Below, in pieces: positions 6,545 to 37,517 of a stretch of DNA of 64,000 nt. Numbering within the stretch: position 1 is the first letter of the stretch; every line of letters starts with the position of its first letter. Under the pieces are notes generated by a model. That model made no database searches. It saw only the letters and a list, made by a program, of their open reading frames with translations, and had not been told where the DNA came from. Both the position numbers and the translations under genes were made by a program. The stretch is from NCBI GenBank assembly GCA_965231075.1, contig OZ246412.1, positions 553,787 to 617,786 of the forward strand, written 5' to 3'. The DNA is from an uncultured Candidatus Saccharibacteria bacterium. GTDB lineage: Bacteria > Patescibacteriota > Minisyncoccia > RBG-13-40-8-A.

Positions 6545-7684
6545 CTACAATATTCCCAATAGATAATAAGTTCCCAGTCCTAATAGAATAATCGCTTCAA
6601 TTAAACTTAGCCATTTCATTGCTTTCCCAGATACAATTTTTATGTTCATCGTGAATACAGCAATCAGAAAAACAATGATTTCATCTAGCATATAAAACAA
6701 AATATAAACCAGGAGATGAAAAATGTAACTAATCAGAGAAACTTTGGCATGCGCCATAACCCCCGCGAACAGAACCGGTATCACTGCCGAGCAAGGAAAT
6801 TCGACAATTGTGATTACGAAAGCAAAAATTACTACCCCTACAATTAATCCCCAAATCCCTCCTGATTTTTGAAATGCCTCTTGAATTTTTAAAGAATGCT
6901 TGGTAACAATTTTGTTGTCTTGTTTGCAAATTAAATCTTGTTTTCGAGATTTTAAGAATTGTTTTAGAAAATATATTGAACCCAATATTCCCAAGATTCC
7001 TACAAATAAATTCATTATCTTCAGAACTGGACTTAACAAATAAAATAATTGATACCACAAAAAGATCAATGCGCCATAAATTATCGCAGTAATTAAAATA
7101 TATAGTCCGCCGAATAAAATTATTTTTGGCCGTGATTTTAAAATCAGCACCAACCCCAAAATCATGATCAGTGCCCCCAATGAACAAACACTAAATCCAT
7201 CAAAAAACCCCAAAATTATCGCTTGCATTAACAATGAATATTTGCTCAAATCTATTTCCCCCAAGATTGGAATTGTGATCTTGTTTTCGTCTTTTTTGTC
7301 TGGCGTTTCGAAATTTAATTGTTTCTCAATCGAATTGACGATCTGTTTACCGATTCCATTTTCATTATCAAAACCCAGAAAAAAATCCTCACCGACAAAA
7401 GTCATTGGCACGGCACCCAAATATTTTTCGGCATTGTGTTTTTTAACCGAATCAATTAATAGTTGTCTATGGGTTGTGTCGGTAATTAAGTAGCGATTAA
7501 TTTTCACTTCAGGATAATTTGGTTCGATTTTATCTAAAAATGTATTTTCTGCCTTACAATGAACGCAGGTTTCAGAATAGAAGAAATTTATTTCTAGCTT
7601 CGTTTCTGCGTACGCAAAAAACGGGGTTACAATCGTTAGCCCGATTAAAGCAACCAAAAACAAATTAAATGATTTTTTTGTCAT
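6545..7684 (-). CDS. Membrane thiol:disulfide oxidoreductase: N-terminal thioredoxin-like CxxC domain fused to a DsbD/CcdA-family polytopic domain
   Basis: Signal/TM segment, then a CVHC (CxxC) motif; multiple TM helices with conserved Cys in CSLG and FPCSAV segments. Confidence 0.5.
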   Translation of the reverse strand: MTKKSFNLFLVALIGLTIVTPFFAYAETKLEINFFYSETCVHCKAENTFLDKIEPNYPEVKINRYLITDTTHRQLLIDSVKKHNAEKYLGAVPMTFVGEDFFLGFDNENGIGKQIVNSIEKQLNFETPDKKDENKITIPILGEIDLSKYSLLMQAIILGFFDGFSVCSLGALIMILGLVLILKSRPKIILFGGLYILITAIIYGALIFLWYQLFYLLSPVLKIMNLFVGILGILGSIYFLKQFLKSRKQDLICKQDNKIVTKHSLKIQEAFQKSGGIWGLIVGVVIFAFVITIVEFPCSAVIPVLFAGVMAHAKVSLISYIFHLLVYILFYMLDEIIVFLIAVFTMNIKIVSGKAMKWLSLIEAIILLGLGTYYLLGIL

Positions 7685-15154: not shown

Positions 15155-15408
15155 TTAAAAGATTTAAAGATGACCACATTGTCACAAATTCAGAAATGAA
15201 TATTCCATTAGTCAAAAAGCACTGTCAGACCGACGCACGAGGTGAAATGTTGTTAAAAAACGCCGTAAATAATCTACATATGTCTGCGCGTGGTTACCAT
15301 CGTATTTTAAAACTTGCTCGCACCATTGCTGACCTCGCCGACTCACCCAACATCACTTATATCCACATTGCCGAAGCACTACAATATCGACCAAAAATGG
15401 AAATATAA
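15155..15408 (+). pseudogene. Duplicated 3' fragment of comM (C-terminal ~83 codons), remnant of an insertion or duplication event
   Basis: ORF 15115..15408 encodes ...FKDDHIVTNSEMNIPLVKKHCQTDARGEMLLKNAVNNLHMSARGYHRILKLARTIADLADSPNITYIHIAEALQYRPKMEI, near-identical to the comM C-terminus; it has no ATPase domain and no credible independent start. Confidence 0.75.
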
Positions 15409-15684
15409 AGGACCACTTATCGAGTGGTCCTTTTGAGCTTGACGCAGGGAAAGTAAAAAGCATGACCGCTTAACATTCGTTCCCCCGTTTTTTTTGTCTG
15501 TGCAGATGTCTTCCAATAGACGCAAGGTGCAGGCAATAAATCCCTTCCCATCGAACGAACTTTTACCGTGGCTAACGAATTCAACTTTCTTGCCTGTAAA
15601 ATTTTCTCTCGCCTCGGAATGAAACCCTCCCTGTCCCAGTTCGACAATTTCACATTCATCTCCGGGATTAAATTTTCTTTGCAT
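15379..15684 (-). CDS. Hypothetical protein (101 aa)
   Basis: Strong SD (ttaaggaggaacac) directly upstream of the ATG at 15684; the C-terminal part overlaps the comM-repeat and hairpin, so the true stop may lie earlier; relatively GC-rich. Confidence 0.45.
   Translation of the reverse strand: MQRKFNPGDECEIVELGQGGFHSEARENFTGKKVEFVSHGKSSFDGKGFIACTLRLLEDICTDKKNGGTNVKRSCFLLSLRQAQKDHSISGPLYFHFWSIL
15409..15434 (+). terminator. Rho-independent terminator-like hairpin immediately after the comM-fragment copy
   Basis: aggaccact-tatcg-agtggtcct followed by tttt. Confidence 0.5.
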
Positions 15685-15718
15685 GTGTTCCTCCTTAATT
15701 AAAATATAACATGGAATT

Positions 15719-15750
15719 AAAAAATCCCCCGCAACACGGGGGATTTTTTA
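15719..15750 (-). terminator. Hairpin with flanking A/T runs (terminator of the LysM/CHAP gene; bidirectional-capable)
   Basis: aaaaaatccccc-gcaacac-gggggatttttt. Confidence 0.6.
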
Positions 15751-16749
15751 GTAAATGTATCCTCTAATTCGCCAATCATCTTGATTTAAGATTCTCACAC
15801 GCTTAATACCGCGCCCCAAACTCATTTCAGAAATTGTAATTGTGTCTTCTCCTACTGCCTCAACATAAGCAACGTGTCCATAAACGCTTTCTTTAGTTGA
15901 AACGATCGCCCCAACTCTTGGTTCGGTTCCGGTTTCAAATCCATATTGTGGGGCTTTTCCTAACCAGGTCTTAGCATCTCCATTCCAAGGAATGTATCGT
16001 TTCTGGGCAACGTACCAGGTACATTGACCCCAGGGAAATCCATGACTCGTATCTCCATATGGTCCAAGCTCTTCGGGAGTATAAGAAGCATATGATCTTG
16101 CTTTTGCAGGGATAAATTGAATTGGTTTTTGGCCGTCGGGAATAATAATTTCTTGTCCAATAGCCAAGACGCCATTGGCTGGCAAACCATTTAAATCGAT
16201 AGTTTTCTCTGTGTTTCCTTTATACGTTTTAACAATACTATCTAATGTATCGCCCTTCTTAACCGTATGCTTTACTCCTGATACTGGCAAAATTGATAAT
16301 TTTTGACCAACTTTAATCTTACTGGTTGGAGTTAAATCGTTGGCCCAAAGTAAGGTGTTGGTTGTAATTCCAAACATCGAAGCAATTTCTGAAGGAATGT
16401 CCCCTTGCTGAACTTCGTAGACAATGACACTGCCTCTGCCCGACGAAGAAAACGGCGAAACCGCTGCCGGAGAATTATGGGCAACAAAAGAATTGTCTTG
16501 TATTAAGACACTAGAATCTTTAAATGACTCATCGACAAAATATGACTCTTCGACTATTTCCTCGTAAGGATTTAAATAGTCCGAAGCATACACACAAGAA
16601 CCGCTTATGGCTGAATTTATGTCTTCTTGGTCTGTATCAAAATTACCATTAAAACTTCCGGCGATCGTTGTGGTTACGAATAAAACCATTAAGACAATAA
16701 AAATAACTGCTGCTACCCTAAAATATGGGGTTTTGAGCAGTTTTCCCAT
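15748..16749 (-). CDS. Secreted peptidoglycan hydrolase with LysM repeats and a C-terminal CHAP domain
   Basis: N-terminal TM/signal; two LysM-like segments (VQQGDIPSEIASMFGITTNTLLWANDL; HTVKKGDTLDSIVKTY); CHAP-like C-terminus (GQCTWYVAQKR...GHVAYVEAV). Confidence 0.8.
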   Translation of the reverse strand: MGKLLKTPYFRVAAVIFIVLMVLFVTTTIAGSFNGNFDTDQEDINSAISGSCVYASDYLNPYEEIVEESYFVDESFKDSSVLIQDNSFVAHNSPAAVSPFSSSGRGSVIVYEVQQGDIPSEIASMFGITTNTLLWANDLTPTSKIKVGQKLSILPVSGVKHTVKKGDTLDSIVKTYKGNTEKTIDLNGLPANGVLAIGQEIIIPDGQKPIQFIPAKARSYASYTPEELGPYGDTSHGFPWGQCTWYVAQKRYIPWNGDAKTWLGKAPQYGFETGTEPRVGAIVSTKESVYGHVAYVEAVGEDTITISEMSLGRGIKRVRILNQDDWRIRGYIY

Positions 16750-18944: not shown

Positions 18945-19748
18945 ATGATAGAAATCCAAAAAATTCTTAATAAATACAACACCAAACCCAATAAATTCAT
19001 GGGGCAGAATTTTTTGATTGATGAGAATGTTTTAAATAAAATTTTAGAAACTTCCAACATTAAACCAAATGACATTGTGCTAGAAATTGGTCCTGGTTTA
19101 GGAGTTTTAACGTTAGAATTAGCAAAAAAAGCTAAAAAAGTTATTGCCATCGAAAAAGATAAAGAATTATGTGAAATATTGCAAAACGTTCTAATTGCTC
19201 AAAATGTTAAAAATGTTGAAATTATCCACGACGATATCTTGCGATTAAAACAAATACAACAATTACAACATTACAAAGTCGTTGCAAATATTCCCTACTA
19301 TCTAACCTCTCTCTTGATCAGAATGTTTTTAGAAACAAATAATCGACCATCGGAAATAATTTTAATGATTCAAAAAGAAGTTGCAGAAAGAATTTGTGCC
19401 GTTCCACCAAAAATGTCCTTACTCGCCGTGTCGGTACAGTTTTACGCTAAACCGGAAATTATTTCCTTCGTTTCAAAAAATAGTTTTTATCCCGTGCCAG
19501 AAGTAGATTCGGCTATCATTAAAATCGTACCTCAAACAAAACTGGAAATCGACACAAAAAAGTTTTTTGGGATTGTGAAGAAAGGATTCGCATCAAAGAG
19601 AAAAATGTTAATTAATAATTTAAAGTCCGAATTTCAAAATCCAAATATCAAATCAATTCTTGAAAACATCGGACTAAATCCAAAAGTTCGGGCAGAAAAT
19701 TTATCGATTGACGACTGGATAAAAATCTATGAACAAACAAATCTTTAA
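18945..19748 (+). CDS. rsmA: 16S rRNA (adenine1518/1519-N6)-dimethyltransferase
   Basis: GQNFLIDENVLNKI...VLEIGPGLGVLT SAM-binding motif, NIPY motif; 267 aa. Confidence 0.9.
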   Translation: MIEIQKILNKYNTKPNKFMGQNFLIDENVLNKILETSNIKPNDIVLEIGPGLGVLTLELAKKAKKVIAIEKDKELCEILQNVLIAQNVKNVEIIHDDILRLKQIQQLQHYKVVANIPYYLTSLLIRMFLETNNRPSEIILMIQKEVAERICAVPPKMSLLAVSVQFYAKPEIISFVSKNSFYPVPEVDSAIIKIVPQTKLEIDTKKFFGIVKKGFASKRKMLINNLKSEFQNPNIKSILENIGLNPKVRAENLSIDDWIKIYEQTNL

Positions 19749-21369
19749 TCTTAAATTAAATATTATTTGGCTCTTACCGATTTTGAGCGGGTTATTATTG
19801 GTCCTATTTCCATTATTTGATTTTGGCTATCTGGTTTGGTTTTCATTGATTCCGTTGTTGTGGTTTATTTTTTCAAAATCAATCACAACAAAGAAATCGT
19901 TTCTGGGTGGACTATTAACTGGGACGATTTTTGGCGGAGGATTGTTGTTGTGGCTATTTGATACTGTACCATTCGAATTCATCGGTGTTGATAACGAAAA
20001 AGAAGTTGTGTTGGTCTTTTTTGTTTTCTTAGTTCTGTGGTTGATTCACATTATATTCATTGGATTATTCATTGGTGCTTTTTCTTGGGTGATAAAAAAA
20101 TTGTCATTGAAATTAAATTTTATCTGGCTTGTGTTTCTGATCCCCGGGGCCTGGATAGTTTTTGAATATTTGCGAGCATGGGGATTTAATGTTTTATGGC
20201 TAGGAAAAGAAACTCTGTGGAGCCCATATTGGACATGGGGGAACCTAGCATACTTTATACATAACCATTATCCTCTGACGCAAATCGCCAACATTGGCGG
20301 AATTTATTTAATTGGCTTTTTAATTGTTTTGATTAACGTGCTGTTATTTTTATTAATTTATAAATTCAAACAATCAACGCTATCTTCAAAACTATTTATC
20401 TCGATACTTGTATCCGTCGCATTGATTCTATCTTTATGGATGATTTATGGAACCCACCAACTAAATGGGCACCAAAACACAAATACAGTTAAACTAGCTA
20501 TCTTGCAAACCAATTTCGCCTCGGGAAATGAGCTAAATGCTTACAATAAATTGGCCGTGTTTAATATCATTAAAGAACTGTTTCAAAAGTTTGACAATGT
20601 CGACCAAAAACCTGATATTGTCATTGAGCCAGAAGGATTCAGTTTTGTTACAATGTCTGGGAACAATAATATCGCTAAACATATTTTGGGAGATTTTTGG
20701 GAGCCGGGTCAAATATTTGTCGAAAATCAAAAATTTTCCGATGAAGATAAAAAAACAAAATCTCGATTATTTTATCTTGACCTAGACAAAAAACAACCAA
20801 TCGCTTTTTACGATAAAACATTTTTGATGCCTAACGGAGATTATTTGCCATACATCACAGAATTATTTCTAAAAATGTATTCATTTAAATCCGATTTAAG
20901 TCAGAAATTTTTCTCTCGCGGCAGTTCTTTTAGTGTGGCTGAAACGCCAAAAGGAGTTTTAGGTGGGACGATATGCACAGGATTTATGTCGCCAAATGAA
21001 AATAGGCAAATGGCCAAAAATAAAGCAACAATCTTGATTTCGGCCTCTAGCGACGCTCCGTTTCACGGATCTAAAAAACTTTTGAATCAAATTATTGGAA
21101 TGACGAAATTCCGTGCCATAGAAAATCACCGTTATTTTGCACAAGCCACAAACATGGGATACTCTTTCTTGCTTGATTATCACGGATTAATTGTTGATAA
21201 ACCAGAAAAAATAGATAATCGTATAATAATCGTTGACGCCGAACTTTCAAATGTCGAAACCTTTTATACAAAACTCGGCGACTGGATAATTTATTTGGCG
21301 ATTTTAACACTATTGATGGTTTGGTTATCTTATTTTTTGAAAAATGTTATAATTAAATATATCAAATAA
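19729..21369 (+). CDS. lnt: Apolipoprotein N-acyltransferase-like protein (N-terminal polytopic membrane domain plus C-terminal carbon-nitrogen hydrolase domain)
   Basis: Multiple N-terminal TM helices; CN-hydrolase triad candidates IVIEPEGFSF (Glu), YDKTFLMPNGDYLPY (Lys; compare Lnt KxxLVPFGE) and GGTICTGF (Cys). Confidence 0.5.
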   Translation: MNKQIFNLKLNIIWLLPILSGLLLVLFPLFDFGYLVWFSLIPLLWFIFSKSITTKKSFLGGLLTGTIFGGGLLLWLFDTVPFEFIGVDNEKEVVLVFFVFLVLWLIHIIFIGLFIGAFSWVIKKLSLKLNFIWLVFLIPGAWIVFEYLRAWGFNVLWLGKETLWSPYWTWGNLAYFIHNHYPLTQIANIGGIYLIGFLIVLINVLLFLLIYKFKQSTLSSKLFISILVSVALILSLWMIYGTHQLNGHQNTNTVKLAILQTNFASGNELNAYNKLAVFNIIKELFQKFDNVDQKPDIVIEPEGFSFVTMSGNNNIAKHILGDFWEPGQIFVENQKFSDEDKKTKSRLFYLDLDKKQPIAFYDKTFLMPNGDYLPYITELFLKMYSFKSDLSQKFFSRGSSFSVAETPKGVLGGTICTGFMSPNENRQMAKNKATILISASSDAPFHGSKKLLNQIIGMTKFRAIENHRYFAQATNMGYSFLLDYHGLIVDKPEKIDNRIIIVDAELSNVETFYTKLGDWIIYLAILTLLMVWLSYFLKNVIIKYIK

Positions 21370-21422: not shown

Positions 21423-22439
21423 ATGAAAATCAAAATAAAAAAATCGCGCTTAGCTATAATTCCATTAGCAATAGTTTTTGCTATTGGATTAATTTTATTT
21501 ATCGGTGCTTTTGCAAAAAAAGATGCCTTCTCAACATATAATTTATGGGGGGCGAAACAAACAATTGTCGAATCGCAAAACCTTGATACTGATAATGATG
21601 GGTTAAAAGATTGGGAAGAAGAACTATACAAGACCGACAAATTAAATCCTGACACTGATAATGATGGGTATCTAGATGGAGAAGAAATTAACTCCGGAAA
21701 CAACCCTTTAATTAAGGCCCCTGGAGACGAGGAAATGTTTTATCCTCTTCCGTTGGGAAATCGTTATAATATCACCAATAAAATTCTAAATAGTGAATTT
21801 ATCGATTCGATACTGGAGTCGTATATAGCTCAGAAAAACGAATACATTAACGACCATCAGATTTCGTCGCCAGGTCAATACGATGCAGCGACTAAAGATA
21901 CCACTATCCAGACCATGTTTACAAGAGCAATTGCCGACGGTTATCCGAAATTAATTGAAAGCGCAAATCAAATGTTGGAAGACATGCCGGAAATTTTCAA
22001 TTTGCGGGTCGCCGATCAAGATATTGTCCTATCAGATAATAATAGTGTAGAAAATATTAATACCTATATTTCACGAGCGTCGTCAGTATTGAAATCAAAA
22101 ACATTTTTTTTGCAACAGCAAAGCTTGTCTGCTATAACAGCCGCATTTAAAGAAGGTGATTTTTCCAAAATAGATATAATTATTAAGGATAATACCAACA
22201 AAATAGATTTATTAAAAGAAATTATTGTCCCCTCTTCATGGAAAGATGTTCACAAAGAAGGATTGCAGCTCATCTTAACGATAAGAAATATTTTTATCTC
22301 GTTCCGAGATCTTCCTAATGATCCATTAAAAGCCTATGTAGCTGTAAATGAATTTGAAAAATTTCCCGAGAGATGGAATAAGTTTTTAGAAAAAGTAATT
22401 AATTTGGCGAAACAACAAAATATAGAAATTAATTTATAA
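21423..22439 (+). CDS. Secreted/anchored protein with thrombospondin-type-3-like Ca-binding repeats
   Basis: N-terminal TM/signal; DTDNDGLKDWEE and NPDTDNDGYLDGEEIN repeats; first gene of a long co-directional operon. Confidence 0.5.
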   Translation: MKIKIKKSRLAIIPLAIVFAIGLILFIGAFAKKDAFSTYNLWGAKQTIVESQNLDTDNDGLKDWEEELYKTDKLNPDTDNDGYLDGEEINSGNNPLIKAPGDEEMFYPLPLGNRYNITNKILNSEFIDSILESYIAQKNEYINDHQISSPGQYDAATKDTTIQTMFTRAIADGYPKLIESANQMLEDMPEIFNLRVADQDIVLSDNNSVENINTYISRASSVLKSKTFFLQQQSLSAITAAFKEGDFSKIDIIIKDNTNKIDLLKEIIVPSSWKDVHKEGLQLILTIRNIFISFRDLPNDPLKAYVAVNEFEKFPERWNKFLEKVINLAKQQNIEINL

Positions 22440-22443
22440 AAAC

Positions 22444-25320
22444 ATGCTCACAAAATTTCAAAAAACGATTATATTCTCATTGGTCTTTTGTCTGATGTTC
22501 GGTTTGGTCTTTAATATATTTATTATAAAACCGAAATCAGTTGAGGCGACCGACGGAGGCGCGGGATGGGTACAGGCGATTAAAGATCTGGTACTTGATG
22601 CTGTTGGCTGGGCTGTAACAGATCAAATCTTACAACCACTAAAACAAAAGATTCAAGATTGGGGCATGGGCAAAACTAGCGACGACAACAAACCATTTTT
22701 TGTTATTGACTGGAAAGAGTTTGCCAACGAAGCTTTAGATGTCGCTTCAGCAAGATTTATAGAAGAAGTGGGACTAACCAAGCTTTGTGGTCCACTAAGA
22801 ATTAGTATTGGTCAAAACCCATTGTTTACAACATATTATACTGACCAACCGAAATATAAAAATTATGCTGCCTGTACACTCGACTCTGTTATAAGTAACG
22901 TGGATTCATTTCTCGATAATCCATCGATTAGCGTTTTTGGTTGGAATGCTTGGTCAGTTTTAACACAACCAAATAATAATTTTCTGGGCGCCTACCTGTT
23001 GGCTAGTCAAAGAAGCATAGAAATCGCCAATGAGGAAGCTAAGGCCAAAGACAAAGAAGTGGCTGCTAGTGGTGGGGTGAAAAACGAGACCACCACAAAC
23101 GAAACCGATACAGATGCTTGCCTTAAAAAGTGTGATTCAGAATTTGACGTGAATAGAGAAAACAATGGTCAGCTGTGGGAAGATTGCACCGATAAATGTG
23201 AAACCACAACTAAAGGAGTCCCCACAAAAAGTTCAGTTAAAAACCTCGGTTCGACAATAAAGAAAAATATCGACGACGCTCTGGGAGCAGATATGAGTAG
23301 AATCATTAGTGCTGATGAAATTAGTGAGCTCGTTGGTGTATTTTTTAGTGCCGTTATAAACAAAGCAATCGATGGGTTGGGGTTGGTACCATCTAGTGCG
23401 AATAAAACCGCAGCAGAAGAATCTCGCGATGAAATGAATGACCTTTATTCCTATGGAGATGGCAGCAATGAGATGACCGAAGAAACAAAACAGAATATTC
23501 GTTTGTCAGTTTTAAACGGAATGCTTAAGGGCGTGCAGATGATATCTAGATCAACAGCAAAATGTGAAGACGAAGATACCATGATAACCGATTTGGATTT
23601 TAATAAAAATATTAGTGATATATACTCAGCACAATTAGAGGCGCTGTATGTGGGAACTGCAGGGGTAAATCTCAAACCGGATTTTATAGTTTTGGATTCT
23701 CCGTATGCGCCATTTTCTCTATATGGTTATGGATGGAGCAATATTCCGGGAGTTAAAATGCCAGCTAAATGCAAGAAAATAACTGCCCAGGCAGGATTAG
23801 GATCGTCTGGTTCTTGTACAAATATCGTCAGCGGTCTTGAACCAAATTATAGTCCCAACTGTAAGAGATGCATATATGATGGAAGCGAATTAAATTGTCC
23901 TCCTGCGCCGTATCCTCCGTTCAGCAGCGTATCGGGGGATGTGGTAACGCCAGTGATCCCAGACGATGCAACGATTTTAGCCAAACAAGATTTTTATAAT
24001 AAATGCATGGAATGGTATGACGTAACTAAAAATAGATGCAGTGATTGCGTGAAGAAGGCTGATGCTAAATGTAATCAGGGGGACGAAATTGAAAAACAAG
24101 CATGCATTGAAGATGTCTGTAATAATTATGATGACCTTAAGCCACACGTTGCGTCTACTATCACTAGTAGCGTCGATTTTTACAACAAATGTCTATTAGA
24201 AGAAAAAAAATCTTCCTGCTTTACTTGTCTTAAAGAATATTTTATGCCTGCTTCATACTGTGACACTATGACTGAGTTTACAGCCAGATCATTAATCAAA
24301 TATCCTGCTGTCGTACTAGCGACAAATGTTGACGACGGTCGTTCTGTGGGAAGATACGACTCTACTTTTCAGGAAGCATTTGAAGATAGAGCTACCGAAT
24401 GTAATAACGATAAAAACAGAGGAGCAGCAATCGAAGTAAGCCTAATCTGCAGAATTATGCCAGAGTTCAAACATAATGGCATACAAATCTGTAGACAATA
24501 TTGTATGGGAAGCGGAATGACTGAAATAGAATTGAACGACATTTTAGATAATCGGCCAACTGATGGAGACTGTAATAACAAAAAAATAGGGATTGGTGGC
24601 TCAATTAACGTTTGGGATGTTGTTAAGAATGGAAACTTTCAACAACTAAGCAAATGTTGTGCAGCCACTAACACCACAAGCGTAAAAAAATATTCTACTT
24701 GTATAGGAGCATCGCAGCCCGCCGAAATCTGTACTTATGCGGTGCCACCAGAACAAGAGCCTTGGTGTTATTGTAGTGAAGGATATCGTCCACTGGGATT
24801 TACAAGAACCGGATTTCCACGATCTAGTGGATTGGGTGGGGATTGTAGTAATACTTCAGTTATTGATTGGACTACCAGTGGAATATCAGCGATACCATCT
24901 GGAAGAGAGGTTTACATATATACCAGCAATCAACCAGTAGACAGTGATATATATTATATTGCTAAGGGAGAATGCACCGAGAAAGACAATAATTGGGAGA
25001 ATGCCACTGGTCAAGGACTCGAAGATGGACAAGTTGACGAAGCTTATCATAATTTCACTATGAGTGAAATAACTCAACCATCGAGCGTAATTTGTTCCGG
25101 AAGTGGCGCAAATAGTGATTTTCAGTGCAATGAGGCAGCGGGACAATCGAGTCTCAATCTGGGGGTTTACCACACACAATTATTAGGACTTGGAGCCCCC
25201 GAATCTTCCACAGGGGTCCATATGTGTGCAAAATGCGAATCGTCTGATTCCGGATATCCGAGTTATGGATACAAAGATAAGTCAGGATATACGTCGGATC
25301 AATGCACTGGCAAACAATAA
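22444..25320 (+). CDS. Large (958 aa) secreted cysteine-rich protein, hypothetical surface component of the T4SS-like operon
   Basis: Signal/TM at the N-terminus; more than 60 Cys in clustered CxxC/CxnC patterns across the length; overlaps the next gene's start. Confidence 0.6.
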   Translation: MLTKFQKTIIFSLVFCLMFGLVFNIFIIKPKSVEATDGGAGWVQAIKDLVLDAVGWAVTDQILQPLKQKIQDWGMGKTSDDNKPFFVIDWKEFANEALDVASARFIEEVGLTKLCGPLRISIGQNPLFTTYYTDQPKYKNYAACTLDSVISNVDSFLDNPSISVFGWNAWSVLTQPNNNFLGAYLLASQRSIEIANEEAKAKDKEVAASGGVKNETTTNETDTDACLKKCDSEFDVNRENNGQLWEDCTDKCETTTKGVPTKSSVKNLGSTIKKNIDDALGADMSRIISADEISELVGVFFSAVINKAIDGLGLVPSSANKTAAEESRDEMNDLYSYGDGSNEMTEETKQNIRLSVLNGMLKGVQMISRSTAKCEDEDTMITDLDFNKNISDIYSAQLEALYVGTAGVNLKPDFIVLDSPYAPFSLYGYGWSNIPGVKMPAKCKKITAQAGLGSSGSCTNIVSGLEPNYSPNCKRCIYDGSELNCPPAPYPPFSSVSGDVVTPVIPDDATILAKQDFYNKCMEWYDVTKNRCSDCVKKADAKCNQGDEIEKQACIEDVCNNYDDLKPHVASTITSSVDFYNKCLLEEKKSSCFTCLKEYFMPASYCDTMTEFTARSLIKYPAVVLATNVDDGRSVGRYDSTFQEAFEDRATECNNDKNRGAAIEVSLICRIMPEFKHNGIQICRQYCMGSGMTEIELNDILDNRPTDGDCNNKKIGIGGSINVWDVVKNGNFQQLSKCCAATNTTSVKKYSTCIGASQPAEICTYAVPPEQEPWCYCSEGYRPLGFTRTGFPRSSGLGGDCSNTSVIDWTTSGISAIPSGREVYIYTSNQPVDSDIYYIAKGECTEKDNNWENATGQGLEDGQVDEAYHNFTMSEITQPSSVICSGSGANSDFQCNEAAGQSSLNLGVYHTQLLGLGAPESSTGVHMCAKCESSDSGYPSYGYKDKSGYTSDQCTGKQ

Positions 25321-27572
25321 TGGTAATAAAATTTATGAAAACAAACATGAAATCAAAATATAAAATTTCAACAATAACAATGATCGTAAGTATTGTTATG
25401 TTGGGAGTTATTGTCCCTGCGTATGCCCACGCAGGAGTCTTTAGTTTTATCGGAGATATCTTAGGAAATGTGGCCGCGGACTTGTTGTCGCTCTTAGTTG
25501 GTCTGATTCAGGGATTGTTGGGATTGTTAATAAAAGTTGGAGCTGCTTTTTTTGAGACAATGTTGAATTTTGGTTTCACTAGGAATTCTAGCGTTGATAT
25601 CGTTAAAACCGGATGGACGGTAACTAGAGATTTTGCAAATATGTTGTTTATACTCTTTATGATTGTGATTGCGTTTGCGACAATATTAAGAATAGAGGGC
25701 TACGGTATAAAAAAATTATTACCGAAGGTTATTGGTATAGCTCTTTTAATCAACTTCAGCATGGTACTATGTTCGGTGGTTGTTGACTTCAGCAATATTA
25801 CCGCCAATTTTTTTGTTAAGGATATAAACACCAAACTAAATGGCAAAACCATGGGAGCAGTGTTTGTGGATAGCATGAATCTATCCAAAATATTAACGTC
25901 TCAGATTGATTATAGTGGTTGTGACAAAACTTATCGAGAGGAACTATCGTCTTGTGATGAAATGAGAAAAACCATGGTGCCGGGTGATTATCAAAAATGT
26001 AGAACAAACGCCCAAAACGTAAGGGTTGCTTGTGAACAACAACTAGCAATAGCCGCACAAAACGCAGCTAAGCCCAAAAACGGATTAATTGAACTTATGG
26101 ATGTATTAATCTCTGGAATCTTTGGATCAATATTGTTGCTAATTGTAGTATTCACATTCTTCGCTGGAGGAGTCCTCTTGTTGATTAGAATGATATCCAT
26201 ATGGTTCTTGATCATGATCGTTCCCTTAGTTTTTATTTGCTACATAATACCGTCACTAAACTCTAATTGGAAAAAGTGGTGGGGAAAATTTCTCAATTGG
26301 TGTATTTTTGCACCTGCCTACAGTTTCTTTATCTGGTTAGCAATCAAAGTATCTATAGAACAATCCAATAAGAAAATCGTTGCAGGCATATCTAGTGCCA
26401 ATAATTATATATCAGACCCCGGAGTAACTAATAATCCGTTTATATTTAACCCTGGTCAAAATTTAATAAGTTTTGCATTTATCATTGCCCTTTTGGTCGG
26501 TGGGCTAATTGTAGCTAAATCTCTCGGAGTGTATGGAGCAGACACTGTGATGAAAATTGCAACCAACGCTAGAAAGGGTGCGACCGATTGGGCAAAGAGA
26601 AAAAGTACTGGCGCAGCTAAAGAGTTGGGCGCTAGAGGTGCTGGGTCATTGAAACAGGGGGTGGGGTCAATACTAAAAATGAAATACAGCCCATTTAAGA
26701 GTACGGGCAGGAGAATGGAAGCAGGTGGCAAGTTAATGAAACAGGACTCTGCTAGTGCCAAGGAAGTTGAAGCGTACAAGAAACGATTAGCTGTAATGTC
26801 GAGGGAAGATATGGTGGCCGAAATAAATTCCCCGCATTTACGAAAATCATTTAAATTAGCAGCCATACAAGAGGCTCAAAAGCGTGGAGACTTATCCAAA
26901 ACTGACAACCTCGACGCGATAAGATCATCTGTCAACACCCTCAAGGCTTACGGATACGATAAAAGCTCTTCGGATCTTCAGAATAATAGAGCAGACGCCA
27001 TTGAGGACAGAACAAAACAAAAAGAAATTGTCGAAAAAATGGCAAAAGAAGGTAAGCTTGGAGAGTTGTCTCTGCAAGCGATAAAGGATGAAAACGTAAC
27101 AGCATTATTGGCAGAGGTGTGTGAGCCACAACAACTCGAAGCAATAAGAAACACTTCTCGTCAACATGCTGAAGCTCTAGATAAGGCCCTAGAAGATATT
27201 ACCAATCCATTAAATGCAGCTGCCATGACAGCTAAACATATAAATCCTGCTCTAGAGAAAATACAACACGCTTATGCGGCTCAAACGGGCAAACTTGATA
27301 GATTAACCGCTGGCCCAACAGGTACGGCGCAATCATTTATAAAAGAGGTTGGGGCAAATTACGCCCTTAAGCGTGTTAAATCTGTCCCCGCAACAGCAAT
27401 GCCCGATATCGTGCCAAATATTCCCGTAAATAAACTTAAATCAATGATAGCAGAAATGGAAGATACTGCCGCAAAAGAAGTTATAACATACATCAAACAT
27501 ACACTGCCAAATACGCACGATTTATGGAAGCTTGTAGACAAAGATGAGTCCCTAAAGAATATCGCCCCATAA
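25302..27572 (+). CDS. Polytopic membrane protein, VirB6/TrbL-like candidate with a C-terminal coiled-coil extension
   Basis: Signal peptide, then at least 6 hydrophobic helices (aa ~40-420), then ~330 aa of hydrophilic K/E/A-rich tail; position in the operon before VirB3/VirB4-like genes. Confidence 0.4.
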   Translation: MHWQTIMVIKFMKTNMKSKYKISTITMIVSIVMLGVIVPAYAHAGVFSFIGDILGNVAADLLSLLVGLIQGLLGLLIKVGAAFFETMLNFGFTRNSSVDIVKTGWTVTRDFANMLFILFMIVIAFATILRIEGYGIKKLLPKVIGIALLINFSMVLCSVVVDFSNITANFFVKDINTKLNGKTMGAVFVDSMNLSKILTSQIDYSGCDKTYREELSSCDEMRKTMVPGDYQKCRTNAQNVRVACEQQLAIAAQNAAKPKNGLIELMDVLISGIFGSILLLIVVFTFFAGGVLLLIRMISIWFLIMIVPLVFICYIIPSLNSNWKKWWGKFLNWCIFAPAYSFFIWLAIKVSIEQSNKKIVAGISSANNYISDPGVTNNPFIFNPGQNLISFAFIIALLVGGLIVAKSLGVYGADTVMKIATNARKGATDWAKRKSTGAAKELGARGAGSLKQGVGSILKMKYSPFKSTGRRMEAGGKLMKQDSASAKEVEAYKKRLAVMSREDMVAEINSPHLRKSFKLAAIQEAQKRGDLSKTDNLDAIRSSVNTLKAYGYDKSSSDLQNNRADAIEDRTKQKEIVEKMAKEGKLGELSLQAIKDENVTALLAEVCEPQQLEAIRNTSRQHAEALDKALEDITNPLNAAAMTAKHINPALEKIQHAYAAQTGKLDRLTAGPTGTAQSFIKEVGANYALKRVKSVPATAMPDIVPNIPVNKLKSMIAEMEDTAAKEVITYIKHTLPNTHDLWKLVDKDESLKNIAP

Positions 27573-27578: not shown

Positions 27579-27989
27579 ATGCAATTTCAAGTACCACAAT
27601 TTATTGACATTGAGGACAAGGTTATTGGTCCCCTAACGATTAAACAATTCCTATATCTTTTAGCGGGCGGTGTTATTGTGTTTATCCTTTACAAAACATT
27701 GAATCTATTTGCGACAATTGTCCTGGGAGTTCCCATAGTGGGTATTGCTATTGCTCTTGCTTTTGCAAAAATTGGCAACCAGCCGTTTATTAATTTCTTA
27801 AAAAATTTCATTGGATTTGTTAAAAGACCGGATTTCTATGTTTGGAAAAAACCGATAGGAAAAAATAAGATTGTTGAACCAAACGAAGATATCGAAATCA
27901 TCCAAAAAGTGCCAGCCAAAACAAAGCTTAATCCAGAAGCTAAAGATAGTTTACAGGACATGGGATGGAAAGTAGAAATCGAAAAATAA
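27579..27989 (+). CDS. Small two-TM protein, VirB3-like candidate
   Basis: 136 aa; two adjacent TM helices (LYLLAGGVIVFILY...ATIVLGVPIVGIAIALAFA); immediately upstream of VirB4-like ORFs. Confidence 0.35.
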   Translation: MQFQVPQFIDIEDKVIGPLTIKQFLYLLAGGVIVFILYKTLNLFATIVLGVPIVGIAIALAFAKIGNQPFINFLKNFIGFVKRPDFYVWKKPIGKNKIVEPNEDIEIIQKVPAKTKLNPEAKDSLQDMGWKVEIEK

Positions 27990-27993
27990 TATT

Positions 27994-28626
27994 ATGCCAC
28001 AAGTCAAATTACCAAAAAACGCACCCGAGGTGCAAAAATTTGTTGAGGTTCAGGAAATCAAAAACGGAATGGCGATAATGAAAGACAACAGCATCAGATC
28101 TGTGTGTGCTTGTTCGTCAATAAATTTTGATTTATTAAGTGCAACTGAACAAGAAGCCGTCATCGCTAGATTCCAAGAGTTTTTAAATTCCGTCGACTTC
28201 CCTCTTCAAATTATTGTCGCCTCTCGTCATTTTAAAGTTGAGGGATACCTTAACCAGATTCGTGAGTTGGAAAAAAAACAGACCAATGAACTGTTAAAAA
28301 TTCAAACCAATGAGTATATAAATTTTGTGGAAAGTTTTGTAGAATTTGAGAATATTATGAATAAATCTTTCTACGTCATTGTTCCGTTTAACATTGTTGA
28401 ATCGCACAACGAAAATCTATCTACAAAGATTAAAAACGTTATCAGTTCTAGTAAGCCCAAAAAAGAAAGATTTGAGACAGAGAAGTTGAATCAATATAAA
28501 GCTCAATTAGACCAGAGAATTAATTTAGTAGCTCAAGGATTACAGGCATTAGGGATTAAAACTATTCCACTCAATGACGAACAGTTAACCCAGCTATATT
28601 TCGAGTTCTACAACATAGAGAAATAA
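27994..28626 (+). CDS. Hypothetical soluble protein, possibly the split N-terminal domain of VirB4
   Basis: 210 aa with no TM; its length added to the 598-aa ATPase ORF gives ~808 aa, the size of canonical VirB4. Confidence 0.4.
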   Translation: MPQVKLPKNAPEVQKFVEVQEIKNGMAIMKDNSIRSVCACSSINFDLLSATEQEAVIARFQEFLNSVDFPLQIIVASRHFKVEGYLNQIRELEKKQTNELLKIQTNEYINFVESFVEFENIMNKSFYVIVPFNIVESHNENLSTKIKNVISSSKPKKERFETEKLNQYKAQLDQRINLVAQGLQALGIKTIPLNDEQLTQLYFEFYNIEK

Positions 28627-28630: not shown

Positions 28631-30427
28631 ATGTCATTATTTAAGAAATCAAAACCTAAAAACCAAGGAAATGTTTCTGAAATTGAAGAAATTCAGGAAA
28701 TTGAGAACAGCTTAGCAGACACAATTTCACCATCTGCCCTCCAAATTACATCTAATTATATCCAGATTGGCGAGAAATTTGCCCAAACATTTTTTATTAT
28801 CACTTATCCCCGATTTCTCACCGTAAATTGGTTATCGCCAATCATCAATTTAGATAGAATATTTAATTTGGCGATGTTTGTGCACCCGACCGATACCGGA
28901 ATAATTTTAAAAAAACTTCGACGCAAAATTACGCAAATTGAATCTCAAATCAATTCTGAACAAGAAGCAGGAAAAATCAGGAACCCTATATTAGAAACTG
29001 CCCGAGGCGATGTCGAAGAAATGAGAGATCGACTGATTCAAGGCACAGAAAAGTTTTTTAAATATTCCCTCTATATCACTATTTTTGAAGACTCTGTGGA
29101 TAAACTTAAAGAAGCCGAGGAACAGATCATGGGACTGTTTGAGGCAAAAATGATTTATGCCCGACCGGCGCTGTTTCAACAACAGATTGGTCTAAATTCA
29201 ACGTTACCATTTGGCAAAGATCATTTGTTTATCACAAATTCTATGAATACTGCACCTCTTTCTACGGTATTTCCATTTGTATCGTCAAATCTATCGTCCA
29301 ACAAAGGTATTCTTTATGGCATTAATCGCCATAACAATAGTCTGATCATTTTTGATAGGTTCTCCATGGAAAACGGCAACATGGTTATTTTTGGCAAGTC
29401 CGGAGGAGGAAAATCTTATGCTGTGAAAGTGGAGATATTGAGGTCGTTAATGTTCGGAACAGACGTAATTGTTGTAGACCCAGAGAATGAATACCAGCAT
29501 TTGGCCGAAACCGTCGATGGTGCATATTTTAAAATATCATTAACTTCTGATAGCCACATTAATCCCTTTGATTTGTCTTTGCCCGATGAAGATGAAACCA
29601 CCGAAGATGTCTTGCGGTCAAAAATAATGGATTTAATTGGTCTCTTAAGGGTGGCTCTGGGGGAACTGACCCCAGAAGAAAATTCTATTTTAGACAGAGC
29701 ATTAACTGAAACCTACGCATCAAAAGATATTACGTTTCAATCTGATCTTAAGAACGTTACCCCGCCAGTTATGCAGGACCTGGAAACAGTTTTAAATAAC
29801 ATGAAAGGGGGTGATAGGATCGCTAAACGACTTGAGAGATACACTAAGGGCAGTTTTTCTGGATTTTTAAATCAACCCACAAATATTGATGTTAATAAGA
29901 ATCTCATTGTGTTTAGCACGCGCGATATGGAAGACGAATTAAAACCAGTGGCAATGTATCTGATCTTACAATATATTTGGAATCTAATTCGTTCTCAAAT
30001 GAAAAAACGCATTATGATCGTCGACGAGGCGTGGTGGATGTTGAAAAGCGAAGCTGGCGGGTCATTTCTTCATGGCATTGCTAAAAGATGTAGAAAATAC
30101 TGGCTAGGACTAACCACGATCACTCAAGATATTCCTGATTTCATGAATTCCCCTTATGGTAAACCGATTGTCTCTAACTCTTCAATCCAAATACTTTTTA
30201 AACAATCCCCCGCGACAATTGATGTCGTACAACAAACATTTAATCTAACTGATGAAGAAAAATACCTTCTTTTACAAGCCGGTGTCGGCGAGGGAATTTT
30301 CTTTGCCGGATTAAAACATGCTGCTATAAAAGTAGTCGCATCCTACACCGAAGATCAAATCGTAACAACTAATCCAGAACAGATTTCTAAAATTAATCAA
30401 GCGAAAGAAGAATTAAAAACAATATGA
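28631..30427 (+). CDS. virB4: VirB4/TrbE/CagE-family type IV secretion ATPase
   Basis: Walker A FGKSGGGKS, Walker B IMIVDEAWWM, downstream LTTITQD motif; no TM segments. Confidence 0.8.
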   Translation: MSLFKKSKPKNQGNVSEIEEIQEIENSLADTISPSALQITSNYIQIGEKFAQTFFIITYPRFLTVNWLSPIINLDRIFNLAMFVHPTDTGIILKKLRRKITQIESQINSEQEAGKIRNPILETARGDVEEMRDRLIQGTEKFFKYSLYITIFEDSVDKLKEAEEQIMGLFEAKMIYARPALFQQQIGLNSTLPFGKDHLFITNSMNTAPLSTVFPFVSSNLSSNKGILYGINRHNNSLIIFDRFSMENGNMVIFGKSGGGKSYAVKVEILRSLMFGTDVIVVDPENEYQHLAETVDGAYFKISLTSDSHINPFDLSLPDEDETTEDVLRSKIMDLIGLLRVALGELTPEENSILDRALTETYASKDITFQSDLKNVTPPVMQDLETVLNNMKGGDRIAKRLERYTKGSFSGFLNQPTNIDVNKNLIVFSTRDMEDELKPVAMYLILQYIWNLIRSQMKKRIMIVDEAWWMLKSEAGGSFLHGIAKRCRKYWLGLTTITQDIPDFMNSPYGKPIVSNSSIQILFKQSPATIDVVQQTFNLTDEEKYLLLQAGVGEGIFFAGLKHAAIKVVASYTEDQIVTTNPEQISKINQAKEELKTI

Positions 30428-30868: not shown

Positions 30869-31603
30869 ATGAAAAAACAAATCTGTCTTATTATAATTTC
30901 GTTGTCAGTGTTTTTACCGATAATTGGTTGCGCGTCAGAAGAGTATATTCCGTTAATACAAAACTTATTGCCATCAACAACATCGGCTGGCACTCAAGAC
31001 CAGCCCTCGATTAAGTTAAATATGCTTGAACTTGCCTGGAGCGCTGAGACATATGCTCCACTAGACTATCAAGGGAGGACGTTGCCAATTAAAGGGTCAA
31101 TGGTTGATGTGGACGCGATAATATCTATCACAGGAGAAAATACAGGCAATCTAAAATTCAGTTGGTTTTTAGATAATACGTTTCAAGAATCTAAATCTGG
31201 ATACGGCAAAACCTCGTTTAGATTTGGGGTTAGGAAATTCAACGGCGACTTTCATAATGTTTTAGTAAAGATTTTCAATGAAGATAGATCATTCTATATT
31301 GAAAAATCGATAGAGATACCGATAGCCCGATCAGAGGTTGTTTTAAAACAATCCAATATGAATCAACTCTCCATTCTTGCGAAGCCGTATTTTTTCAGTA
31401 TAGATAAATTGACCGACCTAGAATTCCAGTGGACACTAGAGGGGCAAGAGCCTATCATTTCATCTAATTATAATGCTGATATACTAGATATAAATATTAA
31501 AAACAAAAATCTTCCGGCGTCTGAATATCAATTAGGACTTGTTGTTAAAAATCTGAGAAACACAATACAAAGCGCAAATAGTTCGATTAAAATTAACTTA
31601 TAA
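30869..31603 (+). CDS. Lipoprotein, hypothetical
   Basis: Signal peptide with lipobox LPIIGC-AS. Confidence 0.5.
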   Translation: MKKQICLIIISLSVFLPIIGCASEEYIPLIQNLLPSTTSAGTQDQPSIKLNMLELAWSAETYAPLDYQGRTLPIKGSMVDVDAIISITGENTGNLKFSWFLDNTFQESKSGYGKTSFRFGVRKFNGDFHNVLVKIFNEDRSFYIEKSIEIPIARSEVVLKQSNMNQLSILAKPYFFSIDKLTDLEFQWTLEGQEPIISSNYNADILDINIKNKNLPASEYQLGLVVKNLRNTIQSANSSIKINL

Positions 31604-31608: not shown

Positions 31609-31971
31609 ATGAAAAAATCCATATTCTTTATAGTCACAATCTTTGTGCTTTTAATAATAGCTCAGAATTGTCTAGCGCTAGAATTGTTGTTAGACTATCC
31701 GACTATAAGCGGAAAAGATTTGGGCGACACTAGTAGTATTCCAGATTTGATAAGCTATATTTATAAATTCGCTCTAGGCGCTTGTGGTATAACTGCCTTG
31801 GTGTCTATTATAATTGGAGCTGCACAATATGCTTTCTCTGCTGGCGACTCTTCTAAGGCAGGAGATGCTAAAGACAGAATAACTTCGGCATTGTTAGGAG
31901 TTTTAATTTTATTGTTTTCGTATCTGATTCTAAACACAATTAATCCAGACCTAGTAAGTTTGAAATTTTAA
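31609..31971 (+). CDS. VirB2/TrbC-like pilin candidate
   Basis: 120 aa; cleavable signal peptide followed by two hydrophobic helices separated by a short polar loop (GACGITALVSIIIGAAQYAFSAGD...ALLGVLILLFSYLIL), the classic T4SS pilin architecture. Confidence 0.4.
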   Translation: MKKSIFFIVTIFVLLIIAQNCLALELLLDYPTISGKDLGDTSSIPDLISYIYKFALGACGITALVSIIIGAAQYAFSAGDSSKAGDAKDRITSALLGVLILLFSYLILNTINPDLVSLKF

Positions 31972-31989: not shown

Positions 31990-33165
31990 ATGAACACAAA
32001 ACTTAAAAAGGTATTAATCATCATCGTGATAATCTTGATTGTCGCATTAGCAGGACTTCTGGTCTACAATTTTGTTATTAGAAAGAACATTGAAGACGAA
32101 AACAATAATGGCAATCTCCCCGGAGAACAACCAAACATCGACAATCAGGATCAAAATCAAGACCAGGGTGACACCGAACAACTAATATCAGAACGAAAGA
32201 TTATTGCAATTAGCACTGATCCCGTATTATCTCCAACAATCACCAACAATAAAACAAGTGTGATTTATTATTCGAAAACAAATGGCAATATTATTCAATC
32301 CGATTTCGATGGATTAAATAAAATTACGATATCTGATACAAATCTCGATAATCTCCTACAGGTATTTTGGGCGCAGAGCAAAGACAAAACCATAACCGTG
32401 TTTCAGGACAATATTGGTAACACTAGCAAATATTATTATAATATTCCTACTAAAAAATCGTTTCCTCTAAATAAGTTTATAAATTATATCTCTTGGTCTT
32501 CAGACGGCTCTAAAATCGTTTATCAATATCAAAACGATGATACGGGCGAAAACACAATCAGTGTATCGAATCCTGACGGATCAAGATATTCTGTAATTCT
32601 TAATACTCGAATGAAAAATCTAATCATCAATTGGCCCAAAGGATCAACTATTTACCTACAAGAAAGACCGTCAGGATTGGCGCAGAGTAGCTTATACTCA
32701 TTAAACTATCTATCTAAAGCATTTAATAAGGTAGTATCGAATCTTTATGGATTTAGTCTGAAATGGTCATCTGGTGGCAATAAAATACTTTATTCTAAAA
32801 CAAATTCCGAAGGAGAAAATATCGGCTTATACATTGCAAACAGTAATGGGTCTAGTGAAAAAGCATTGGATGTTCAAACATTAATCGAAAAGTGTGCATG
32901 GTCCCAAGACACAAGATACATCTTCTGCGCAATACCAAATAATATTTCTGATGCAAAAATACTGCCTGATGATTTTTATAAGGGGGTATTCGTCAGCGAT
33001 GATGAATTCTATAAAATCAACATTGAAACTGGTGAAAAAACCAATCTGTTTGATAAAAGCTTAGAAGAATCATTTGACGCAGACGAGTTGTTCCTTTCGC
33101 CGAATGAAGATTATTTATTCTTTGTAAATAAAAATAACGGACTATTATACCGTATAAAAATTTAA
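31990..33165 (+). CDS. Membrane-anchored TolB-like beta-propeller (PD40/WD40-like repeats) protein
   Basis: N-terminal TM anchor; repeated SxDGSKIVY / WSSGGNKILYSK motifs. Confidence 0.55.
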   Translation: MNTKLKKVLIIIVIILIVALAGLLVYNFVIRKNIEDENNNGNLPGEQPNIDNQDQNQDQGDTEQLISERKIIAISTDPVLSPTITNNKTSVIYYSKTNGNIIQSDFDGLNKITISDTNLDNLLQVFWAQSKDKTITVFQDNIGNTSKYYYNIPTKKSFPLNKFINYISWSSDGSKIVYQYQNDDTGENTISVSNPDGSRYSVILNTRMKNLIINWPKGSTIYLQERPSGLAQSSLYSLNYLSKAFNKVVSNLYGFSLKWSSGGNKILYSKTNSEGENIGLYIANSNGSSEKALDVQTLIEKCAWSQDTRYIFCAIPNNISDAKILPDDFYKGVFVSDDEFYKINIETGEKTNLFDKSLEESFDADELFLSPNEDYLFFVNKNNGLLYRIKI

Positions 33166-35856: not shown

Positions 35857-36318
35857 TTAAGGATAGATCCTGACTACCAACTTTCTTTCTGGTTCTTCTC
35901 CGATGCTTTCAGTCACAATATCTGGCTGTTCTGCCAACTTTAAATGAATAATTCTTCTTTCGTAGGCAGACATCGGCTCTAGAGTTATCGACTCTTTAGT
36001 TCTTCTTACTTTCTTCGCTGTTTCAATTGCGATCTCGCTTAATTCGTTTTTCCTTTTCTCTTTGCATCCGTTAACGTCTAAAACTAAAAACGCGTCTGTT
36101 TTTTCTCTGGAAAATAACAATCTCGCCAAGTGTTGTAATGCATTTAATCCTTCGGCATTGTCTCTGGTCAATACGTCTGCATCGTATGCACTCATTTCGA
36201 TATTAACCTCCATTACTTCTTTGTTTTTAGATAAGTTGTCTTTTTTGACACTAATTTCTTTTACCTTGATGCCTATTTTCTCGAGTATCTCCTCAATTAT
36301 TTTTTTGATCTTTTCCAT
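35857..36318 (-). CDS. jag: Jag/KhpB RNA-binding protein (KH + R3H domains)
   Basis: C-terminal R3H motif (ERRIIHLKLAEQPDIVTESIGEEPERKLVV); located downstream of yidC as in the conserved cluster. Confidence 0.75.
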   Translation of the reverse strand: MEKIKKIIEEILEKIGIKVKEISVKKDNLSKNKEVMEVNIEMSAYDADVLTRDNAEGLNALQHLARLLFSREKTDAFLVLDVNGCKEKRKNELSEIAIETAKKVRRTKESITLEPMSAYERRIIHLKLAEQPDIVTESIGEEPERKLVVRIYP

Positions 36319-36988: not shown

Positions 36989-36989
36989 A

Positions 36990-37214
36990 TTATTTTACTG
37001 GGTCAACCCCACCGCGATTAAACGGATTACAACGCAAAATTCTTTTTATGCCCATCGCGGAACCCTTAAATGTTCCATGTTTTTTTAGTGACTGACAAAA
37101 ATACTCGGAGCAAGAAGGATAAAACCTACAACCACAGGAGGGATTGATTTTAACAATAACCCTAGAAACACTTTTTTGATACAGCTTTATTAAACTCAAA
37201 ATTAAATATTTCAT
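36990..37214 (-). CDS. yidD: Membrane protein insertion efficiency factor YidD
   Basis: CRFYPSCSEY...RILRCNPFNRGGVDPV is the YidD signature. Confidence 0.8.
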   Translation of the reverse strand: MKYLILSLIKLYQKSVSRVIVKINPSCGCRFYPSCSEYFCQSLKKHGTFKGSAMGIKRILRCNPFNRGGVDPVK

Positions 37215-37515: not shown

Positions 37516-37517
37516 CT

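Follow-up and report, generated by a model that had tools for sequence, protein, structure and literature searches.

What does a large, cysteine-rich exported protein do in the gene cluster for a type IV secretion system (T4SS) of a minimal monoderm bacterium? The question is raised by a stretch of 64,000 nt from an uncultured Candidatus Saccharibacteria bacterium (Patescibacteriota; GenBank assembly GCA_965231075.1, contig OZ246412.1, positions 553,787 to 617,786), referred to here as the window. It carries an open reading frame (ORF) for a protein of 958 amino acids (aa), the target, directly upstream of a gene for a VirB6-like membrane protein. An initial annotation made from the letters of the DNA had described the product as an exported, disulfide-rich protein and had proposed a tip adhesin or an effector of the T4SS. 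The reading favoured here, which is given about an even chance of being correct, is that the target is a Sec-exported, disulfide-stabilised, VirB5-like structural subunit of the T4SS that carries a lineage-specific adhesin module. It would be a VirB5-like subunit whose domain is new and which, within this clade, bears an exceptional module rich in disulfides.

The frame is open and uninterrupted, as first annotated. The identical protein is recorded on a 626-kb NCBI contig and on a separately assembled 16.9-kb Logan contig, which excludes a frameshift or assembly artefact, and full-length homologs exist as well. The leader (residues 1-35) consists of an n-region (MLTKFQK), a long hydrophobic core and the sequence KPKSVEA; residues 4-33 are hydrophobic, in agreement with the N-terminal signal or transmembrane segment reported before. 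Every complete homolog has the pattern P-K-x-A-x-A at the corresponding position, and signal peptidase probably cleaves after VEA. At the 5' border the gap to the upstream gene is 4 nt. At the 3' border the stop codon TAA (25318-25320) shares its final base with the in-frame ATG (25320) of the VirB6-like gene (TAATG), so that the overlap of stop and start described earlier amounts to a single nucleotide. The first account, of a secreted cysteine-rich product coupled in translation to VirB6, thus holds except for its number of cysteines. An independent gene call uses the same ATG, while an earlier ATG at 25302 would give an overlap of 19 nt. Scans of the whole target against Pfam, NCBIfam and PHROGs, and a sequence search of the PDB, returned no match; likewise, no catalytic or toxin family was matched in the library scans, consistent with the earlier statement that no catalytic motif is recognisable.

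The initial annotation had counted more than 60 cysteines in the target. The actual number is 41, of which 40 follow the leader. This gives a cysteine content of 4.3%, compared with 0.57% for the remaining 54 window ORFs. All four of the cysteine motifs quoted at the time were located in the target. The CxxC motifs (CKRC at 473, CSDC at 532, CFTC at 592 and CAKC at 928) take in eight of the 41 cysteines, and histidine amounts to 0.5% of residues. Among 15 homologs, which BLASTP places at 36-60% identity to the target, 26 of the 41 cysteine columns are invariant, and most of the remainder are conserved in at least 73% of sequences. The number of cysteines in the mature chain is even in 31 of 33 full-length homologs, with counts spanning 30 to 68, and in the wider family it is even in 212 of 228 proteins (binomial p ~4e-45). 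Such parity is the signature of exported proteins in which all cysteines are paired, and argues against metal binding or free thiols. From the even counts of the mature homologs, the target likely forms about 20 disulfides, about three in the N-terminal domain and about 17 in the extension that follows it. The leader, the conserved cysteines and their even number in the mature chain together uphold the description of the target as an exported, disulfide-bonded protein. As the even-cysteine rule is kept strictly over hundreds of family members, it also implies that these minimal monoderm bacteria perform extracytoplasmic oxidative folding.

A word-indexed search returned 15 full-length homologs, 32-60% identical to the target, the closest of the named ones carrying the annotation 'Patescibacteria group bacterium'. 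The profile built from their alignment was searched against 1.84 billion cluster representatives and matched 3,874 proteins at E<=1e-3, 2,401 at E<=1e-10 and 69 at E<=1e-30. Past some 40 full-length or fragmentary relatives, the matches cover only positions ~1-330, in proteins that are mostly of 300-700 aa. The target therefore has two layers, a widespread domain at residues 36-330 (the N-domain) and a clade-restricted part at residues 331-958, the latter being found in about nine species-level genomes of a GTDB-based collection. This modularity was missed in the initial annotation: only the C-terminal two thirds are cysteine-rich and clade-specific. All family members bear the database name 'hypothetical protein'. 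Searches (tBLASTn) with the family consensus against plasmids, and with the target protein against phages, gave no match, so the N-domain family is not a known plasmid or phage gene.

The conserved features of the N-domain are W73, C115, C144, F156, GGW165-167, NN178-179, G211, TPG267-269 and two further cysteines. It is predicted to be mostly helical, and besides Cys115 and Cys144 the region of Cys226/230/248/252 is conserved; in the wider family the domain most often contains four cysteines. The body of the domain matched no Pfam, NCBIfam or PDB sequence family, also when N-domain family profiles were used, and a PDB sequence search with the full-length clade profile returned nothing meaningful. 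The central region (residues 331-780) is absent from distant family members and, where present, is conserved to the same degree as the N-domain. Of the cysteines, 25 lie here, nearly all of them invariant, together with three of the four CxxC motifs; the region is predicted to be mainly helical. The recurring cysteine clusters reported for the protein are borne out only in part: self-BLAST found one clear duplication, residues 509-538 being 40% identical to residues 571-598, and residues 731-777 may be a third copy. They do not form a regular array, and a regular repeat protein was rejected because the sole clear duplication is that one unit of ~30 residues. Variability within the clade is greatest in the last 180 residues, which show a mean identity to homologs of 35% against 47% elsewhere, more indels and lower occupancy. 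In the full-length AlphaFold2 (AF2) model the predicted local distance difference test (pLDDT) score is 60.9 overall and 70-88 over most of residues 330-760, where the model is predominantly helical; from residue 781 it is beta-rich. With this model, Foldseek searches of PDB and viral structures yielded only jelly-roll or CUB-like matches below threshold, over a stretch of ~160-200 residues, which is presumably the C-terminal beta region. The modular construction extends to the wider family: C-terminal extensions are shorter than 50 aa in 47 members, 50-150 aa in 93, 150-400 aa in 87 and at least 400 aa in 37, and those that can be recognised are modules of binding type: Flg_new_2/InlB B-repeat, CHB_HEX_C_1, Fn3, Laminin_G_3 and DUF4214.

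The genomic setting of the target is that of a chromosomal T4SS cluster, in which genes for VirB4, PrgI/VirB3, TrsD, a VirB6-like protein and a VirB2-like pilin are found together (Table 1). The models for PrgI, VirB4 and the pilin exceed their cut-offs, while TrsD and VirB6 are recognised below threshold or through homologs, and the T4SS-like neighbourhood proposed initially is thereby confirmed. The window's own VirB6-like protein matches no family model; it has several hydrophobic segments in residues 20-413 followed by a hydrophilic C-terminal part of ~340 aa, and its homologs show weak Pfam matches to TrbL and TrbL_3. No relaxase or coupling protein was seen in scans of the cluster genes, the rest of the window and genome not having been searched for them. 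Upstream of the target lie the TSP3-repeat gene, lnt, ksgA and pcrA, with the LysM-CHAP hydrolase on the opposite strand. Directly after the cluster come jag (R3H)/yidC, rnpA, dnaA and dnaN (window 35857-40501), so that the T4SS is no more than ~5 kb away from the presumed origin of replication.

The window was compared with six further Patescibacteria loci (L001, L002, L003, L004, L016 and L017), which derive from metagenome-assembled genomes (MAGs) of Paceibacterota, Portnoybacteria and similar groups. Identity of their N-domains to that of the window (tBLASTn) is 71% in L001, 39% in L002 and 23-30% in L003, L016 and L017, and is not detectable in L004. The family members of the six loci are 283 to 986 aa long and occupy the same gene position in all six, so that a member stands immediately upstream of the VirB6-like gene in seven of seven loci, even where it is a protein of 283-536 aa with only 22-31% identity. 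The tight link to the VirB6-like gene seen in the first annotation thus holds in every locus examined. The common order is LysM hydrolase (opposite strand), pcrA, ksgA, a gene of 244-336 aa, the family member, VirB6-like, PrgI, TraC-like and VirB4, with one extra gene sometimes present between VirB6-like and PrgI; where the locus extends past VirB4, two small genes, the pilin and a gene of ~400 aa follow. In pairwise comparison VirB4, TrsD, PrgI and the VirB6-like proteins (630-921 aa in the related loci) are orthologous across loci. The pilin was not detected in L003 or L004. The cysteine-rich part of the target was found, among the compared loci, in L001 and L002 only.

A link to a known T4SS component comes from the N-termini of the family. 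When 123 members were compared with NCBIfam, TrbJ models were the commonest match: NF010448 (TrbJ) was matched by 22 of the 123 (best E-value 2.6e-07) and TIGR02780 by ten, with further matches to NF010452, NF010416 and the VirB5 models NF010434 and TIGR02791; TrbJ_Ti is included among them. An alignment of ten TrbJ/VirB5 genes from annotated plasmids has invariant positions that include A-x-x-P-V-x-D-x-x-N straight after the leader, and hhalign of the family against it gave one match (probability 87%, E 4e-06, 32 columns) that starts at the cleavage region and extends through PVxDxxN. The target's leader likewise aligns with the leader and cleavage region of TrbJ. Examples are the N-termini of two family members, P0176 (..AQVVPVLDAPNLAQN) and P0186 (..AQFVPVLDSANLAQN), compared with TrbJ (..AGIPVIDGTNLSQN). 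The element shared by the family and TrbJ/VirB5 can be written as A|xIPVxDxxNLxQN, a Sec leader whose AxA site precedes, in many members, PV(I/L)DxxNLxQN. PV.D is found in 62 of the 226 N-termini of the family, compared with 0.7% of other 55-residue windows of the same proteins. The likeness extends to gene order, as trbJ of the reference plasmids lies immediately upstream of (trbK and) trbL/virB6, the relative position that the target holds, and to the predicted helical structure and the co-occurrence of a VirB2-like pilin. Several family members also match DUF4141 (PF13605, 53 positions) above cut-off over residues ~14-50, a span that takes in leader sequence and the beginning of the mature protein; of the six relatives listed as positive, four reach 33.7-40.5 bits, the cut-off being 30. 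DUF4141 represents the N-terminal part of TraI in conjugative transposons of Bacteroidetes, where the TraI gene lies upstream of that for the VirB6-like TraJ, a position that would again correspond to that of the target.

Several observations weigh against the VirB5-like reading. The scores of the TrbJ/VirB5 models are 18-30 bits against cut-offs of 100-346, and the matches span only residues ~5-60 (profile positions ~2-57), the similarity to TrbJ/VirB5 being restricted to the first ~30-50 residues. The remaining ~250 residues of the N-domain align to nothing known. This domain is ~300 aa long and has conserved disulfides and GGW/PQNN motifs that are absent from the TrbJ alignment; in addition, the host here is monoderm and the target adds a cysteine-rich extension of 630 aa. 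The target itself has no match to TrbJ, VirB5 or DUF4141, and its own motif is degenerate (VEA|TDGGAGW), retaining the Asp alone, whereas P0019, a member of the same clade, keeps IPVVD. Foldseek searches with the AF2 models found neither a VirB5 structure nor any other solved PDB fold, and model confidence is modest (the pLDDT of 60.9 quoted above for the full-length model; 68.7 for a helical N-domain model from a 142-sequence alignment, with a predicted template modelling (pTM) score of 0.43). Lastly, the hydrophobic core of the leader is long (~21 residues), so it could stay in the membrane as an uncleaved anchor. Because the alignment is confined to the N-terminus, the target's motif is degenerate and the N-domain model has no match among PDB folds, the family is not filed as a member of TrbJ/VirB5; it may work like VirB5/TrbJ and may descend from it.

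In the R388 T4SS structure, a VirB5 pentamer sits on a VirB6 pentamer with its N-terminal part pointing outward, and VirB5 is located at the pilus tip (PMC9259494). By analogy, the leader of the target would carry it across the membrane and would probably be cleaved after VEA, and the N-domain would be the machine-binding part, docking on the VirB6-like platform as TrbJ/VirB5 does in diderm systems. The protein would then be moved outward on the VirB2-like pilus or a stalk, and the C-terminal 630 residues would act as a rigid module held by about 18 of the ~20 disulfides, with the variable beta-rich end exposed and in contact with the host cell surface. Comparison of the window with L001, its closest relative, gave identities of 92% for pcrA, 91% for VirB4 and 87% for TrsD; the N-domain of the target is 71% identical, its cysteine-rich part 53% and the VirB6-like protein 34%. 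A conserved machine-binding head joined to a variable, fast-evolving tail is what would be expected of a host-contact subunit. Of the two roles suggested at the outset, the tip or adhesin is the better supported, by the TrbJ/VirB5-like motif of the family, the variable C-terminal modules of relatives, the fast evolution of the C-terminal part and the pilin gene, all of which are indirect evidence.

The same gene position and export route would also suit a structural part that spans the envelope, with the N-domain on the translocon and the disulfide-rich portion serving as a stalk, sheath or channel wall through cell wall and S-layer, in a role of VirB8, VirB9 or VirB10 type. Synteny and export speak for such a part as much as for a VirB5-like subunit, the long hydrophobic leader could persist as an anchor, the conservation of the central region equals that of the N-domain, and VirB8 homologs are scarce in the T4SS clusters of Patescibacteria (PMC12102498). 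A fixed architectural span is hard to reconcile, however, with relatives that range from 283 aa (the domain only) to more than 1,200 aa and end in unrelated C-terminal modules, and the N-terminal motif favours TrbJ/VirB5 over VirB8, VirB9 or VirB10; an envelope-spanning part is rather unlikely. The other role in the initial annotation, a secreted effector or toxin that is delivered by, or co-regulated with, the T4SS and acts on the host cell, has in its favour that the target is large, lacks housekeeping homologs, belongs to the T4SS operon and evolves quickly in its C-terminal part. The leader is of Sec type, and proteins that a T4SS receives from the cytoplasm are not usually marked in this way; in every cluster examined, moreover, the N-domain is a conserved core gene, present in single copy and always in the same place, rather than cargo. 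Together with the missing matches to catalytic or toxin families, to phages and, for the N-domain consensus, to plasmids, this makes an effector improbable.

Two further explanations concern the chemistry of the protein. T4SS clusters of monoderms usually encode a large hydrolase, and one family member weakly matches a peptidoglycan hydrolase model (E 0.027), so the target might be a VirB1-like enzyme that opens its own or the host's peptidoglycan for the T4SS. This is very improbable, given that no hydrolase family is matched by the target or consistently by the family, that no invariant set of acidic or Cys-His catalytic residues was found, and that every cluster is accompanied by a hydrolase of its own, LysM-CHAP or LysM-M23, in a conserved location. 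The cysteines could alternatively bind metal, in the manner of zinc-ribbon-like CxxC pairs, or take part in redox chemistry instead of forming structural disulfides, as might be read from the four CxxC motifs and from the exported CxxC membrane protein encoded in the same window. With so few cysteines in CxxC motifs, scarce histidine, an exported product and a strictly even parity that fits pairing at counts from 30 to 68, this is scarcely credible.

The cluster can be placed among known systems. Its split TrsD and VirB4, PrgI, VirB6-like protein and VirB2-like pilin, and its chromosomal position near ksgA and the dnaA/dnaN/rnpA origin region, are those of the Patescibacteria T4SS resembling the mating-pair formation (MPF) type FATA, which has been reported near the replication origin in many Patescibacteria (PMC12102498). 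The cluster in the window is this chromosomal, origin-proximal, monoderm-type T4SS. The survey differs in that the target's family is not among the components listed; it detected no adhesins and mentions VirB5 only for one outlier genome of MPF-T type (PMC12102498), and a recent nomenclature review does not list the family either (PMC12857230). It is proposed, tentatively, that the N-domain family is the missing VirB5-equivalent (stalk cap, pilus tip) of the Patescibacteria T4SS and that its swappable C-terminal modules are the host-receptor determinants. If true, interchangeable modules would set which host cell an ultrasmall epibiont attaches to and feeds from. Southlakia epibionticum, the one species that is genetically tractable, requires the T4SS to grow as an epibiont (PMC10633639, PMC12857230). 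As a conserved exported gene beside virB6, with a VirB5-like N-terminus and lineage-specific surface modules, the family is a concrete and testable candidate for the host-contact part of this essential, mechanistically obscure machine. The PrgB-type adhesins of Gram-positive conjugation systems offer a looser parallel, being large exported proteins in monoderm T4SS clusters for which a contact function has been proposed; the target differs in having no detected sequence similarity to them, no sorting motif and no Pfam domain. Unlike the target, PrgB-type adhesins are not known to be disulfide-rich.

A second gene of the window had been linked to the target as a thioredoxin plus DsbD-like membrane oxidoreductase that could serve its secretome. 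Its 379-aa product has a leader, a short exported region containing a CVHC motif, and a polytopic membrane part, two of whose hydrophobic segments contain cysteine. The family assignment could not be supported, as no thioredoxin or DsbD/CcdA model was matched: Pfam and NCBIfam scans returned nothing even at E<=10 or E<=1, no solved structure was matched, and the best PDB sequence match was to a thioredoxin at E 1.7. The protein could be an unclassified envelope thiol-disulfide oxidoreductase, and its proposed service to the secretome is possible.

Table 1. Coordinates (nt, window numbering) of the target, its regions and neighbouring genes
Feature	Coordinates	Strand	Evidence or remark
379-aa protein, leader and polytopic membrane part	6545..7684	-	
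LysM + CHAP cell-wall hydrolase, candidate for VirB1 function	15748..16749	-	conserved position upstream of cluster
Membrane-anchored 338-aa protein upstream of target, bacterial TSP3 (calcium-binding type) repeats, no Cys	21423..22439	+	
Target ORF (958 aa including leader)	22444..25320	+	open, uninterrupted
Leader peptide, residues 1-35	22444..22548	+	hydropathy
Conserved N-terminal domain, residues 36-330	22549..23433	+	profile search, family conservation, synteny
Clade-specific Cys-rich central region, residues 331-780	23434..24783	+	homolog alignment, AF2 model
Internal repeat copy 1, residues 509-538 (DFYNKC..C..C)	23968..24057	+	self-BLAST
Internal repeat copy 2, residues 571-598 (DFYNKC..C..C)	24154..24237	+	self-BLAST
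C-terminal beta-rich region, residues 781-958 and stop codon	24784..25320	+	AF2 strands, variability
VirB6-like polytopic membrane protein, 750 aa from ATG 25320	25320..27572	+	hydrophobic segments
PrgI/VirB3-like	27579..27989	+	PF12666, E 1.6e-08, above cut-off
TrsD/TraC-like (stand-alone VirB4 N-terminal-domain-like)	27994..28626	+	NF041427, 7.8e-08, below cut-off; PF26593 on homologs
VirB4-family ATPase (CD1110 family)	28631..30427	+	NF045971, 375.9 bits, cut-off 325; PF19044
Small membrane protein, 146 aa	30424..30864	+	no family match
244-aa protein, lipoprotein-type leader (..PIIGC)	30869..31603	+	
VirB2-like T4SS pilin	31609..31971	+	PF18895, 1.5e-06, above cut-off; NF045849 pilin-like, 9.6e-05
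Membrane-anchored 391-aa protein	31990..33165	+	weak TolB beta-propeller, E 8.8e-06, far below cut-off

The comparison of loci also provided details on the neighbouring genes. The hydrolases at the LysM-CHAP position combine LysM with CHAP or M23 in all related loci. The gene directly upstream of the target is of similar size everywhere, with sequence similarity detectable only in L001, L002 and L004. The VirB6-like gene is the fastest-diverging of the cluster (window 25320-27572 against 12959-15118 in L001). In all related loci VirB4 is split as in the window, a separate TrsD/TraC-like gene preceding the ATPase gene, and in L002 a gene of the 23S_rRNA_IVP family (PF05635, nt 15337-15705) is inserted between the PrgI and TraC-like genes. 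A gene of ~390-410 aa after the pilin is also present in L001, L002, L016 and L017. The 244-aa protein with the lipoprotein-type leader is conserved in L001 and L002; its conservation in L003 and L016 is weak. The window also carries, between ksgA and the T4SS cluster, lnt for apolipoprotein N-acyltransferase (19729-21369, TIGR00546 above cut-off), a gene that L001 shares and the other five related loci lack. An Lnt would not be expected in a monoderm, and the cluster also encodes the protein with the lipoprotein-type leader (..PIIGC).

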